From NCBI GenBank assembly GCA_020632195.1, contig JACKGA010000001.1:45673-109672 (forward strand): a DNA stretch of 64,000 nt. Reading direction: 5' to 3'. A program made the translations under genes and the position numbers. The notes under the pieces are model-generated. The model was not told the DNA's origin and ran no database searches. It was given only the letters and a program-made list of their open reading frames with translations. Below are positions 4,701 through 28,695 of the stretch, piece by piece; position 1 is the stretch's first letter, and every line of letters starts with the position of its first letter. This stretch comes from Candidatus Nomurabacteria bacterium. Lineage in GTDB: Bacteria > Patescibacteriota > Minisyncoccia > Phycocordibacterales > UBA1006.

Positions 4701-5352
4701 CATCATAGAGTGCCCCCATAAGCTTCTGTGCTGCTTGGTCATCAGCTTTTTCTTTTGATTTTTGATATGTTTCATATGCTGACGATGGTACATACTCGGC
4801 GCTTTGCTTTTCAGCATTTTTTTGAGACCATTGCAGACCCTTTTTTGGAAGTGTTCCTGTATAAGATTTATATCCTTTTGGAACTTTGGGCTGCGTATCA
4901 TTCTCTTGTGTCATCTTTTCATTAAATCTCTTCTGAGGAAAATCAGCTGCGAGATTTTCTCCTTGTTGACGAGCAACATAGCCGAGAATAGAGTTCAGAG
5001 AGACTTCGCCCGCGCGAGTCGTTTTGATCCCCGCTTTGTCTTTGAGAAATTGAGTAAGGATTGGTCGATCTTCTTTTGAGAGAATATTTTTAGACTCCAC
5101 AAACTCACGCCACTGACCAAACGTGGGCTTTTGGTGGTATCGCCCATATTGTTCCATGAACTCTTGAAATGCTTTATCAATTTTCTTGAAAGCTTCAGGC
5201 GGGGTTTTGCGATTAGTATCTTTTAATTCTAAATTTGTATTGGTAGATTGCTCTCTATGAGAAGGTTCTGGGTCATCTCCTAAAATAGTAGAAAAAACTT
5301 TTTTAATTTCTTCCTGATTTTTTGAATTGTTTATAGCGTCGCCAAGATTCAT
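1738..5352 (-). CDS. large hypothetical membrane protein (1204 aa, two predicted transmembrane segments, Q/N/T/P-rich, coiled-coil)
   Basis: Uninterrupted 3.6-kb ORF. Hydrophobic segments GGAWLAVAGMYTTSAALFGLNIPGYLGGFAGGMIT and WRARLILTMLGAMGGGMTAHSL. The C-terminal region is Gly/Pro/Asn/Gln-rich and of low complexity. No catalytic motif recognised. Confidence 0.7.
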   Translation of the reverse strand: MNLGDAINNSKNQEEIKKVFSTILGDDPEPSHREQSTNTNLELKDTNRKTPPEAFKKIDKAFQEFMEQYGRYHQKPTFGQWREFVESKNILSKEDRPILTQFLKDKAGIKTTRAGEVSLNSILGYVARQQGENLAADFPQKRFNEKMTQENDTQPKVPKGYKSYTGTLPKKGLQWSQKNAEKQSAEYVPSSAYETYQKSKEKADDQAAQKLMGALYDASLGVNTDQNESHPQAQEQTTAKTVYDSAQTDLNYINNDADFLRHQRELKLKIQKELQKNKENTSLSQEESLVEGGQEDSQPLDYEQPEWVSAGPGDLDFGGIGSNLSQQEHESKEDVENKKENIPSPSSNLEPRHFRHLEKNTGLVEVPRDDMEEGNTSVQSIDGTGPTYAIGSDKIARVQRVFKDEKGNLLYEGNRDDVEKGFVNVAPAGSNRTYAISKDKLEHVGSVNPHFEENQVQEIDMQEKELAPQTTEDKKIVTENLTTTDTVVVRDAFKAGEKPVMNYRGQEFAIESMSDDGMWVSFGGRRTRVDINDELSGLIQEGRISFTVPQRFEDKNIHERTQALREDFRAKYKEEVQQQGFFHRLKNRIWFGRGEGDKLEQQDMSPKTMEAYQKYRREAGQEKNNYYMHLLKDKEGWSEDRKKEVAERLKNRYVGITAIYDQQRIAREVRSETLRQQRAETWYGKIENTLQAKFAKLEKEDPKKARLIKQGGAWLAVAGMYTTSAALFGLNIPGYLGGFAGGMITRRLASSRFANLVTKNESIKNLIGNESRTQINMNLHDEELIRLQQQKAKQKAQDWALKDREYMARTKEKDYHPDEDMYYKAAVATQKKMKFEEDAQKAEGRSRIEQLSKQFAHKEIDSLTFQREVERIQRGDVRRWRARLILTMLGAMGGGMTAHSLTSSGPDLSRADMRDMRPDFNRPAPIATIDGGTLPEVEVIGHKSITPVDVDPVVSHEAVFQQPPVAEVQVPPQSNPPVVDITPGPSSHHDIPIAEPTQGHTYQPQTIGQNTSGPNFKGSTGDGVHTQSVPELNQDPVSKGDMSRYPQSELDAATPQNIPNTTVIKTGGPLPTNHLDQTQYLHNQGQFYGDQNVAQAGQGYSTYKSPDASAYNHADVNPNTTFKGGRTIPNPNASIKPTITIGVDGPVLQDTQISFGGNPGESTPVADQSGVMVDGPEDIFRRIPGGQQAGRNLGKAMKDIFGGS

Positions 5353-26507: not shown

Positions 26508-27761
26508 TTATTCATACTGTGGGACAAACTCTCCTGCAGGAACCCATCGATCGGGTTCTCGAGTATTATCAATATTGCCTGTCCCGTTCCCGCCATTAGT
26601 GCCGGAACCGCCGTTGCTTGTATCAGTATCTTCTTGGTCTGGTTGGATATTGGCTACATCAGTCTCGGTGCTCGATGGGGTATATGAGGCAAAGTTAAAG
26701 GCATTGAAATCACTATGACATTCTGGGTCTTGTACATCTACAAGATTATCACCATCATTATCAATACCATCCCCACAACTGTTACCATTGAGGCTCGTCG
26801 TGCTTGACCCGCTTCCACTAGTATTTGTGGTCGTGGTCGTGGTAGTAGTCGTCCCACCAGAAGAAGTATTTGATGATGTGTTCGTGGTGGTACCACTTGA
26901 TGATGCCCCACTAGTCGTAATAGGTGAACCAACCACATAACTCCCACGTCGTTTTTGAAATTCGATCGGAATGGTATAGAGTGTATTCATTTCAGGAATA
27001 GCATTTGCACGCTGAAGTGTAATATATCCATACTTTTTGGCAGGCCAGAACTGATAATCATGAACAATGGCTTGGAAAACGGTAAACTCATCACCATCAA
27101 TTTCCTGCTGAGCAATGGCTGCGCCATAAGCTACGAGATTATCTTTTTTGTCATATACCTGCACAGGAAATTGGCCATTTTCATCATACCAATAGCCACG
27201 CGCCTTCCCAATCACTTGAAATGGTGGTGCGACAACTTGTTCATACAATGGCTGCGAGACGACAATATCGGCGATATTTTGAGTCTGTGAAAAATATGAA
27301 TGACTGCCTCGGCGCCCAAAAAATACGATAATGAAAATAAAAGCAGCAAGCGCAAGGAGCAGGAATCCAATAATCAAAGAACGAAACTGGCGCCGATCCA
27401 TACCACCATGGTGAGTCTTATATTCGGCTGGAGTTGGTGGATAATAGACATGCTCAGGTTGATAGAAAAAAGTCTCAGCTTTACCATCCTGGGACGGGAG
27501 CACATATGGTTGCTGAGCTTGCGGCATAGGCTGCTGCATACCAAAAGAAGAAGATGGTTGTTGCTGAACCAGAGGTTGAGAGATGGGAGAGGGTTGCCCA
27601 GCAGGTGGAGCATATCTCGAGTCGGGAGCAATCGAAGCTGCCTGCGGAGCTACGGAAGCAGAAGAAGCCTGTTCGCCATCAACTACCGCATCCTCGGGAA
27701 GGAATGGCGTGTAGTCATTTTTATTTGGGCTTTGACCATCAGAAGCGCGGAATGTTTGCAT
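26508..27761 (-). CDS. hypothetical single-pass membrane protein with Pro/Gln-rich N-terminus and Ser/Thr-rich extracellular stalk (417 aa)
   Basis: Transmembrane segment LIIGFLLLALAAFIFIIVFF, a poly-Thr/Ser linker and a CGDGIDNDGDNLVDVQDPEC calcium-binding-like motif. Confidence 0.6.
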   Translation of the reverse strand: MQTFRASDGQSPNKNDYTPFLPEDAVVDGEQASSASVAPQAASIAPDSRYAPPAGQPSPISQPLVQQQPSSSFGMQQPMPQAQQPYVLPSQDGKAETFFYQPEHVYYPPTPAEYKTHHGGMDRRQFRSLIIGFLLLALAAFIFIIVFFGRRGSHSYFSQTQNIADIVVSQPLYEQVVAPPFQVIGKARGYWYDENGQFPVQVYDKKDNLVAYGAAIAQQEIDGDEFTVFQAIVHDYQFWPAKKYGYITLQRANAIPEMNTLYTIPIEFQKRRGSYVVGSPITTSGASSSGTTTNTSSNTSSGGTTTTTTTTTNTSGSGSSTTSLNGNSCGDGIDNDGDNLVDVQDPECHSDFNAFNFASYTPSSTETDVANIQPDQEDTDTSNGGSGTNGGNGTGNIDNTREPDRWVPAGEFVPQYE

Positions 27762-27909
27762 GACACTTATTATACCTTGTGTACGATAGTTGGGGCAAGA
27801 AAAAACTATATTTAAAAATCCTCTCGATGCGACTCTTGTCTCGCCCCCTTGGGGACTGCATAAAAAAAGAGCCTCGAATCCTATCGGGTCCGAGACTACT
27901 TTTTATAGG

Positions 27910-27982
27910 TGCCCCCGGAAGGGCTCGAACCTTCGACCGTCAGCTTAAAAGGCTGCTGCTCTACCAGCTGAGCTACAAGGGC
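27910..27982 (-). tRNA. tRNA-Lys (anticodon TTT)
   Basis: The minus-strand sequence gcccttg ta gctcagctggtagagc a gcagc CTTTTAA gctga cggtc gaaggttcgagcccttc cgggggc a folds as a cloverleaf. The acceptor stem has two G-U pairs, there is one mismatch at positions 27-43, and the T-loop is TTCGAGC. Confidence 0.85.
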
Positions 27983-27996
27983 ATGAAATCTGGTGT

Positions 27997-28096
27997 ATAT
28001 CGCATATGTAGTTTCTTCATGGTTTGGACAGCCTTTTCTGAAAAGGCGTTCGTGTGTCCACCGGACACACTCACCTCTCCCAGTGAAACTACAAAA
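27997..28096. other. structured ~100-nt element flanked by 14-nt direct repeats (candidate small RNA or MITE-like insertion)
   Basis: The direct repeat gcatgaaatctggt occurs at 27981..27994 and 28098..28111. Inside, an outer stem tgtagtttc/gaaactaca encloses the hairpins gcctttt-ctg-aaaaggc and gtgtgtcc-acc-ggacacac. Confidence 0.35.
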
Positions 28097-28215
28097 GCAT
28101 GAAATCTGGTACCTCTATGAATTTTCTCAAACCAGATACTCATTATTTCTTTAGTAAAAAATATTACTAAAACACGCGTCACTATACCAACAAATATGAT
28201 AATATCAAGGCATCT

Positions 28216-28695
28216 ATGGAAATCCATCTTGTCCTCAACAATCTGCGTAGCGTCTACAATACGGGATCATTATTCCGCACCGCTGATGCGGCGGGCGTTG
28301 TTCATATACACCTTGTCGGCACAACGCCCGCCCCAACCGACCGTTTTGGTCGCATACGCAAAGACTTTCACAAAACAGCCCTTGGCGCCGAGGCAATAGT
28401 ACCGTGGACATATCACAGAGATTTTGCTTCGTGCGTAGATGAATTGCAGAAAAAAAATATTTCTATTATTGCCATCGAGCAAGATGAAAAATCAATCCCG
28501 TATACCCGCATTCCTTTAGAGGTGCCACTGGCGCTTGTCGTTGGCAACGAGCCAGAAGGATTCTCTCCTGAAGATTTGGCTCTCTGCGATACTGTTGCCG
28601 AGATCCCTCAGTATGGAGAAAAAGAATCACTCAATGTCGCCATTGCAGCGGGGATAGTATTGTTTGATGTGGTGAGGAGAATGAGAGGTGTATAA
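28216..28695 (+). CDS. SPOUT (TrmH/TrmL-like) RNA 2'-O-methyltransferase
   Basis: Motif I LVLNNLRSVYNTGSLFRTADAAGV, motif II LALVVGNEPEGFS, motif III SLNVAIAAGIVLFDV. Confidence 0.85.
   Translation: MEIHLVLNNLRSVYNTGSLFRTADAAGVVHIHLVGTTPAPTDRFGRIRKDFHKTALGAEAIVPWTYHRDFASCVDELQKKNISIIAIEQDEKSIPYTRIPLEVPLALVVGNEPEGFSPEDLALCDTVAEIPQYGEKESLNVAIAAGIVLFDVVRRMRGV

Follow-up and report, generated by a model that had tools for sequence, protein, structure and literature searches.

Upstream of the tRNA-Lys(UUU) gene in a 64-kb stretch of Candidatus Nomurabacteria DNA (the window; all coordinates given here are window positions) lies a structured element of ~115 nt that is bounded by direct repeats. 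On balance we favour the view that this element is a lineage-specific, selected and structured domain within the 5′ leader of pre-tRNA-Lys(UUU), and that it would have arisen through partial tandem duplication of the tRNA-Lys gene itself.

A partial copy of tRNA-Lys in its own leader

An initial annotation of the region had described two 14-nt direct repeats and, between them, a 9-bp outer stem enclosing hairpins of 7 and 8 bp. The 14-mer (GCATGAAATCTGGT) indeed occurs exactly twice in the window, at 27981–27994 and 28097–28110, the second copy lying one base lower than had been given (28098..28111), and an exact 14-mer match was absent from 100 of 100 dinucleotide shuffles of the window. As had been noted, the first copy overlaps nucleotides 1–2 of the tRNA, which occupies 27908–27982 on the − strand. 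All three stems were located as well: the outer stem (TGTAGTTTC/GAAACTACA, 28007–28015 with 28085–28093, 9 bp), which can be extended to 14 nt at 86% complementarity (28002–28015 with 28085–28098), and two hairpins with 3-nt loops, one of 8 bp (GTGTGTCC-ACC-GGACACAC, here hairpin 1) and one of 7 bp (GCCTTTT-CTG-AAAAGGC, here hairpin 2). The segment 27983–28125 is moderately more stable than shuffles on both the − strand (−38.7 kcal/mol, z −2.3) and the + strand (−38.9 kcal/mol, z −2.9).

The direct repeat is, however, longer than had been recognized. A repeat finder extends it to 36 nt at 81% identity (27959–27994 versus 28075–28110), and these 36 nt consist of 12 nt of pre-tRNA leader followed by the first 24 nt of tRNA-Lys(UUU), with the 14-mer as the best-preserved stretch. 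Between the two copies in the window the leader is identical at 12 of 12 positions and the tRNA part at 17 of 24. Thus the apparent insert opens with a pseudo-copy of the tRNA’s 5′ third, in the form of a diverged acceptor 5′ strand and D arm standing behind an identical leader.

Conservation and compensatory change

Contigs encoding a TrmH protein 73–79% identical to that of the window brought the variants of the locus to seven including the window, from ~5 independent lineages; the six others are L004, L003 (= L069), L005 (= L006, L007, L008), L002 (= L060), L061 and L064 (= L067, L068). Among the seven, the neighbouring trmH gene averages 76% identity as protein, 71% as DNA and 45% at third codon positions, the last being near saturation, and the flanks of the element’s core (from promoter-like site to element, and from hairpin 2 to tRNA) align poorly. 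A 50-nt core running from GAGGUGA to GCUG nevertheless averages 90% identity between lineages, and 39 of the 61 columns of the core alignment are invariant. Because this core is single-copy and cannot be homogenized against the tRNA, its conservation points to purifying selection, and we regard it as likely, from these comparisons, that the element is under selection.

In hairpin 1 three pairs have changed on both sides (G-C/A-U, U-A/C-G and A-U/G-C), leaving 96% of cells paired across the seven variants; none of 500 shuffles reached the covariation score of this hairpin. Hairpin 2 is invariant save for one break, in L002. Both above-neutral conservation and compensatory changes, by which conserved structured RNAs are generally recognized, were therefore found, in what is a small sample of seven sequences.

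A predicted leader domain of the tRNA-Lys precursor

A single sigma-70-type promoter-like site on the − strand precedes tRNA-Lys, and it lies upstream of the element (Table 1). Its TTGGTATAGT is identical in 7 of 7 variants, and no promoter-like site was found on the − strand between element and tRNA-Lys. The sequence suggests that this site is active as a promoter; motifs of this TGnTATAAT type stand before many of the window’s genes, often at 7 nt from the ATG. The predicted 314-nt precursor folds as separate modules (5′ hairpin, element, tRNA acceptor stem and terminator) with z = −4.7. In relatives a 5′ hairpin of other sequence occupies the equivalent position, with pairing kept and three pairs changed on both sides. 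The terminator-like hairpin, present in the precursor fold, was unlisted by a terminator scan, which we attribute to its loop exceeding the scan’s limit of 3–8 nt. The window’s other tRNA gene, for tRNA-Gly, has an ordinary leader of ~20 nt.

Two nearly isoenergetic folds of the element are available in all variants. In fold A, hairpins 1 and 2 sit in a junction closed by the pseudo-tRNA 5′ segment paired with a downstream strand, whereas in fold B the 5′ arm of hairpin 2, CGCCUUU, is paired with AGAGGUG, which extends hairpin 1. RNAalifold prefers fold B, whose pairs show no variation and which both of the L002 substitutions improve; being rich in G·U pairs, it is possible on the − strand only. 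Summed over the variants, the minimum free energies come to −222 kcal/mol on the − strand versus −202 kcal/mol on the + strand, a gap due to L002, L061 and L064. The − strand RNA is, in our estimation, a rather more likely agent than the + strand RNA, and we think it fairly probable that the element acts as − strand RNA within the tRNA transcript.

We propose that transcription would begin near 28174, from the conserved extended −10 promoter, and produce one RNA of ~310 nt comprising the 5′ hairpin, leader, element, 12-nt spacer, tRNA-Lys and terminator. Within it the element would fold independently, in either of the two near-equal arrangements just described, and cleavage by RNase P at tRNA position +1 would free it as part of a stable leader RNA of ~190 nt. 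The invariant GAGGUGA, GAAC and hairpin-2 sequences may then form the contact surface for a partner, either a protein or an RNA such as the 3′ end of 16S rRNA. A released or cis-acting leader RNA would be the most likely function; that it serves specifically as a released stable leader RNA or as a modulator of maturation is a tentative suggestion at best.

Table 1. Features of the tRNA-Lys locus, in window coordinates
Feature	Position	Strand	Description
Promoter-like site, sigma-70 type	28181..28208	−	TTGATA, 16 nt, TG-n-TATAGT (extended −10); 10/12 matches
Hairpin at predicted transcript 5′ end	28150..28171	−	Small; TTTAGTAA ... TTACTAAA
Upstream repeat copy	28075..28110	−	Leader 28099–28110 ACCAGAUUUCAU; pseudo-tRNA 1–24, 28075–28098 GCUUUUGUAGUUUCACUGGGAGAG
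Conserved core	28026..28086	−	GGGAGAGGUGA, hairpin 1, GAAC, hairpin 2, UG; model R1 match 80 bits
Hairpin 1	28052..28070	−	8 bp, 3-nt loop
Hairpin 2	28031..28047	−	7 bp, 3-nt loop
Outer stem 3′ strand	28002..28015	−	GAAACUACAUAUGC; pairs with pseudo-tRNA positions 1–14 (28085–28098)
Downstream repeat copy	27959..27994	−	Leader 27983–27994 ACCAGAUUUCAU; real tRNA 1–24 GCCCUUGUAGCUCAGCUGGUAGAG
tRNA-Lys (anticodon UUU)	27908..27982	−	ARAGORN; Rfam tRNA model 66 bits
Terminator-like hairpin	27861..27897	−	AGUCUCG ... CGAGGCU, one U·G pair, then CUUUUUUUA (U tract); read from sequence

Two further observations concern the leader. The stretch between promoter-like site and element in the window (28111–28175) is ~40 nt longer than in the relatives and holds its own, different 5′ hairpin. 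On the − strand a motif, ACCAGAU, is conserved in all seven variants at a point 8–16 nt ahead of the pseudo-tRNA start, and in five of them ahead of the real tRNA start as well; in the window it occurs at 27987–27993 and 28103–28109, and an inverted copy at 28131–28137 pairs with the motif in the precursor fold.

Origin and inheritance

The order tRNA-Lys(−), element, trmH(+) holds in every variant whose contig spans the region, the distance from tRNA-Lys to trmH being 233 nt in the window and 168–201 nt in the rest of the clade. The same two genes are adjacent, in the same orientations, in distant species-representative genomes, where the gap is 52–76 nt (76 in L013, 75 in L030, 52 in L054). 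Since distant relatives keep this short gap, the module is a derived gain of one clade. All seven clade variants are occupied, and element-free sites were seen only in relatives with a TrmH ~50% identical; a diverged copy at the same site in every close relative argues for vertical inheritance, and the element is very likely inherited in this way rather than mobile.

The descent of the element from its neighbour can also be read in the relatives. Compared with its own tRNA over positions 1–24, the pseudo-copy matches at 24 of 24 positions in L003, 23 of 24 in L005 and 21 of 24 in L002. The real tRNAs of L061 and L064 carry another acceptor sequence, CCGCCUG, with compensating changes on the 3′ strand, and the equivalents in their pseudo-copies read CCACCUG and CCGCCUG, respectively. 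In relatives the 5′ arm and loop of hairpin 2 (GCCUUUUAAG) are the same as the sequence of the tRNA-Lys anticodon loop, which the window’s GCCUUUU-AG resembles. On these comparisons the element very probably arose by partial tandem duplication of the tRNA-Lys gene. The duplication would have copied the leader and at least the first 24 nt of tRNA-Lys, probably up to the anticodon loop, after which the upstream copy would have lost tRNA identity and gained two perfect hairpins. The two 12-nt leader copies match at a mean of 8.1 of 12 positions within a genome versus 5.4–6.2 of 12 between genomes, and thus evolve in concert, most simply through gene conversion between them, judging from these alignments. 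The perfect 14-mer of the window is such a gene-conversion tract, and the 14-nt repeats would be the leader ends of two paralogous copies that conversion keeps alike in each genome.

Partial 5′ copies of tRNA-Lys, their own and different from that described above, also stand in the leaders of two Paceibacteria loci, L010 (640–715, − strand) and L012 (upstream of 1874). The L010 copy is identical over its first 16 nt and is then followed by the inverted complement CAACTGACTAC; both copies are weakly structured (z −0.7 and −1.4, respectively). Given these independent cases, partial 5′ duplications of tRNA-Lys seem to recur. Within the clade, L061 and L064 differ markedly in TrmH (73% identical as protein) and share tRNA-Lys and element at ~97% identity, including the otherwise fast-evolving 3′ part, which suggests, from the sequences compared, that the tRNA–element segment has recombined or been transferred between these lineages.

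Alternative explanations

The initial annotation had taken the repeats for target-site duplications and the segment for a small non-autonomous element inserted into the tRNA leader, in the manner of a miniature inverted-repeat transposable element (MITE). The exact 14-nt repeats around a ~100-nt structured segment would suit that reading, as would the sites without the element in distant relatives, in comparison with which the segment is, as that annotation had foreseen, extra DNA. The decisive point against insertion is the composition of the repeat, which is really 36–40 nt of paralogous leader and tRNA sequence, 24 nt of it from the tRNA itself, and which takes in the supposed right terminal inverted repeat (28085–28098). 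Neither hairpin has a second match within the window; a covariance model of the 61-nt core (R1), searched against 65 sources (~350 kb), found orthologous sites only and no dispersed copy among ~60 loci besides the window; and a scan of viral contigs gave one chance match only. Diverged orthologous copies, their core under purifying selection, instead occupy one and the same site in all close relatives, and we saw neither dispersed copies in the window and the loci searched, nor an unrelated short target-site duplication, nor presence/absence polymorphism among the seven variants. A transposon origin is thus hardly credible. Of the two observations that the annotation had named as telling against insertion, the lack of other copies was borne out, whereas loss of the repeat where the insert is kept was not, the repeat being present in 7 of 7 variants; the alternative it had offered, a small RNA gene whose flank is duplicated, comes close to the explanation we favour. 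Only slightly more plausible is an attL/attR duplication left by site-specific integration into the 5′ part of tRNA-Lys. Identity segments of 36–40 nt are typical of attachment (att) sites, and the 3′ side of tRNA-Lys is a hot spot of integration in this clade (an insert in L003 and L005, a replaced 3′ half in L007; see below). What tRNA-targeting integrases duplicate is the 3′ part of the tRNA, however, whereas here the 5′ end and leader are duplicated, with just ~80 nt between the repeats, no integrase gene nearby, and an intervening sequence that is tRNA-derived and conserved under selection; no tRNA 3′ segment flanking integrase DNA was found at this locus, nor was a full-length integrase-carrying element seen between the two repeats in the seven variants. 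It is also improbable that the element is a decaying, functionless tandem tRNA-Lys pseudogene whose repeats are kept alike by gene conversion and whose hairpins are neutral palindromes that template-switch repair keeps perfect. Its clear derivation from tRNA, the recurrence of such duplications without strong structure in the L010 and L012 leaders, and an outer stem that is insignificant in most variants would all agree with decay, but a single-copy 50-nt core that cannot be converted against the tRNA should not then remain 90% identical beside synonymous sites saturated at 45%, and direct repeats of 36–40 nt should favour deletion of an element that is in fact kept in 7 of 7 variants.

Other readings accept a function and place it elsewhere. 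A functional RNA on the + strand, antisense to the pre-tRNA-Lys leader and to tRNA positions 1–24, is improbable: that strand folds as well as the − strand in four variants, turns the L002 change in hairpin 2 into a U·G pair, and includes a 24-nt stretch whose complementarity to the tRNA-Lys 5′ part is perfect or nearly so; but no conserved promoter-like site drives that strand through the element (the sole + strand site, at 27760–27787 with 9/12 matches, lies beyond the tRNA), trmH is served by a −10 element immediately ahead of the ATG, L061, L064 and L002 fold 4.5–8 kcal/mol better on the − strand, and the hairpin 1 change of L061 gives a U·G pair on the − strand only. We give no more credence to a function at the level of DNA, with the palindromes as protein-binding sites or single-strand DNA hairpins (an operator, or a recombination- or replication-related site). 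Each hairpin is a perfect inverted repeat with a 3-nt spacer and a strongly conserved sequence, and the wobble evidence leaves the strand unfixed; yet the outer three pairs of hairpin 1 change strictly complementarily, as in a nucleic-acid stem and not as in two protein half-sites, the site lies 110–155 nt downstream of the promoter-like site and not over it, no integrase or recombinase is adjacent, and − strand folds are more stable overall. A further reading starts from the − strand, on which the invariant GAGGUGA is a perfect Shine–Dalgarno sequence, followed 2 nt later, inside hairpin 1, by AUG or GUG. The 9-codon open reading frame (ORF) that results (M-S-S/G-G/S-H-M/V/T-N-A-F) is open and correctly spaced in 7 of 7 variants, its start varying only between AUG and GUG, and it ends at a UAA in the loop of hairpin 2 in 6 of 7; on this reading ribosome passage would remodel the leader. 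Translation of this frame is very unlikely, though, as the genome hardly uses Shine–Dalgarno sequences (3 of 47 long window ORFs have a match of at least 5 nt), the window itself has lost the stop (UCA), the frame contains no Lys codon and is not followed by a terminator, and codon 6 varies together with untranslated bases ahead of the start. Its third codon positions hardly vary, in contrast to the saturated synonymous sites nearby, and the constraint therefore falls on the RNA and not on a peptide. It is likewise quite unlikely, if marginally less so, that the element is a domesticated tRNA fragment coupling ribosomes to tRNA-Lys supply, in which GAGGUGA and the AUG/GUG inside the hairpin would recruit the 30S subunit or a translating ribosome, in a cell whose own mRNAs are mostly leaderless, and binding would toggle the two folds and tune processing or stability of pre-tRNA-Lys; in another version the released RNA would titrate the 16S 3′ end.

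A number of points also weigh against a selected leader domain acting as − strand RNA. Its transcription start, co-transcription with the tRNA and release by RNase P are all things that we infer. The variants are few (seven, from ~5 independent lineages), covariation is limited to three pairs of one hairpin, and template switching at the level of DNA can also keep palindromes perfect, without selection on RNA. The downstream partner of the closing outer stem differs between lineages, and its duplex energy beats shuffles only in the window (18/500), L061 (21/500) and L064, so that in four of the seven variants the stem does not exceed chance expectation. Wobble pairs point to both strands: in hairpin 2, the change seen in L002 gives a C-A mismatch on the − strand and a U·G pair on the + strand, and hairpin 1 of the L064 type has two mismatches, confirmed in three assemblies.

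Other features of the locus and its relatives

Shine–Dalgarno matches of at least 4 nt are missing in 40 of the 47 long ORFs of the window, and many of its ATGs lie ~7 nt after a TGnTATAAT motif (e.g. at 5352, 6873, 20261, 27761 and 28216); together these suggest that leaderless mRNAs are common in this genome.

The 3′ side of tRNA-Lys varies within the clade. In L003 (1783–1990) and L005 (917–1177) a GC-rich insert of ~195 nt (~65% GC, in an AT-rich genome) interrupts the T loop, bounded by direct repeats of ~63 nt that comprise the last 20 nt of the tRNA and a terminator-like hairpin; it is found in neither the window nor L002, has no Rfam match, and resembles either an att-type duplication or the miniature remnant of something integrated. 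In L007 (1–215) the TrmH protein and element are the same as in L005 and are joined to another tRNA-Lys 3′ half and unrelated downstream DNA, which fits integration of foreign DNA into that half of the gene. The Logan contigs L001 and L004 stop at the same point in the tRNA-Lys anticodon stem, suggesting strain heterogeneity there. Gene order is altered in L004 (735–1928), with a neighbour gene of ~400 aa downstream of trmH, and in L067 (62–1408), where a YgjV-family gene is inserted; L002 (1–583) has an IS3-type transposase ~2 kb from the locus.

Several look-alikes were set aside in the search for further copies. The one viral match, on the phage contig L066, has no hairpin and no tRNA and is due to chance, and the GGAGAGGTGGGTG of L039 lies upstream of that tRNA’s own promoter-like motif and gives no match to model R1. 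A strict pattern scan returned nothing from species-representative genomes and the L002 duplicate only from a metagenome collection, with a pattern too strict to recover the L061 variant. Exact runs of 100 N occur in L020 (3643–3742), L021 (2807–2906) and L037 (1022–1121). Those of L021 and L037 are flanked by identical sequence and thus represent scaffold gaps with overlapping contig ends, so that the apparent masked element and duplicated tRNA-Lys 5′ end of L037 are an artefact.

Implications

If our interpretation is correct, the element is an unannotated, selected RNA structure in the Patescibacteria (Candidate Phyla Radiation), a group whose non-coding RNAs are, to our knowledge, almost unknown. 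It would also offer a clear case of a new structured RNA domain formed from a partial tRNA duplicate and evolving in concert with its parent. Restriction to a narrow clade makes the immediate impact moderate. The 61-nt core and model R1 provide a small, concrete target for transcript mapping and wider homology searches, and the locus illustrates that perfect direct repeats beside a tRNA are not necessarily the mark of a mobile element.

Comparison with known systems

The element belongs to no tested family. Searches of the window (E ≤ 10) and of four relatives (E ≤ 1) gave no match over it to any Rfam 15 model, ribozymes and rtT included, which disposes of SRP (signal recognition particle), 6S, Y-like, T-box and riboswitch identities. 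A hammerhead-like three-way junction (GAGGUGA/GAAC/U) was considered and rejected, Rfam being silent and three core positions, which we take to be essential in hammerheads, differing here. Longer coding frames were rejected as well: ORFs of 84 aa (− strand, 27973–28227), 107 aa and 53 aa (both + strand) have no Pfam match, and a UAA interrupts the 84-aa frame in 6 of 7 relatives. Neither hairpin is followed by a U tract on either strand, which excludes a role as intrinsic terminator, and regulation of trmH was rejected because that gene has its own −10 element 7–12 nt before the ATG in all variants and because tRNA-Lys/trmH synteny is older than the element.

The element resembles tRNA pseudogenes and tRNA-like RNAs in that its first 24 nt copy tRNA-Lys (up to 24/24 in relatives) and a cloverleaf-like four-way fold is possible in some variants; it differs in lacking a T arm, an acceptor 3′ strand to match and the 7-nt anticodon loop. 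A second tRNA gene was likewise rejected, there being no D or T arm and no tRNA call from ARAGORN or Rfam RF00005 on either strand in the window or relatives. On the + strand, hairpin 2 of relatives shows a Lys-like loop, UUCUUAA, followed by a variable-arm-like hairpin, a mirror image that is a trivial result of tRNA-Lys ancestry. Like MITEs and repetitive extragenic palindromic (REP) sequences the element is small, structured, non-coding and flanked by direct repeats; unlike them it is single-copy, fixed at one orthologous locus and vertically inherited, with repeats that are paralogous tRNA sequence. With leader-peptide attenuators it shares a Shine–Dalgarno-like motif, a start codon and a short ORF overlapping alternative hairpins, but it has no Lys codons, no terminator and almost no synonymous variation, in a genome largely without Shine–Dalgarno sequences.

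The closest known RNAs are those made from the spacers of tRNA transcripts. The 178-bp repeats of the E. coli tyrT operon that give rise to rtT RNA (Rfam RF00391) reportedly carry partial tRNA copies and are said to stem probably from unequal recombination, with rtT itself a stable by-product of tRNA processing. The rtT RNA sits downstream of its tRNA and copies the 3′ end, whereas our element sits upstream and copies the leader and 5′ end, with neither a sequence nor an Rfam match between them. As regards co-transcription with the tRNA, a trait of such RNAs, the locus shows one conserved promoter-like site upstream and none between element and tRNA.

Another parallel is the 3′ external transcribed spacer (3′ETS) of E. 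coli leuZ, a small RNA (sRNA) sponge cut from a tRNA precursor (Lalaouna et al., 2015, as summarized in PMC8166272). As that account presents it, the likeness would lie in a non-tRNA segment that is co-transcribed with a tRNA, freed by tRNA processing (as we propose here) and conserved beyond the needs of a spacer. Against the spacer so described, the element is a 5′ leader, much longer (~115 nt within a leader of ~190 nt), tRNA-derived, equipped with two perfect hairpins and found in a Patescibacterium. By analogy, then, the nearest known kind would be a functional RNA excised from the spacer of a tRNA precursor, as exemplified by the leuZ 3′ETS.

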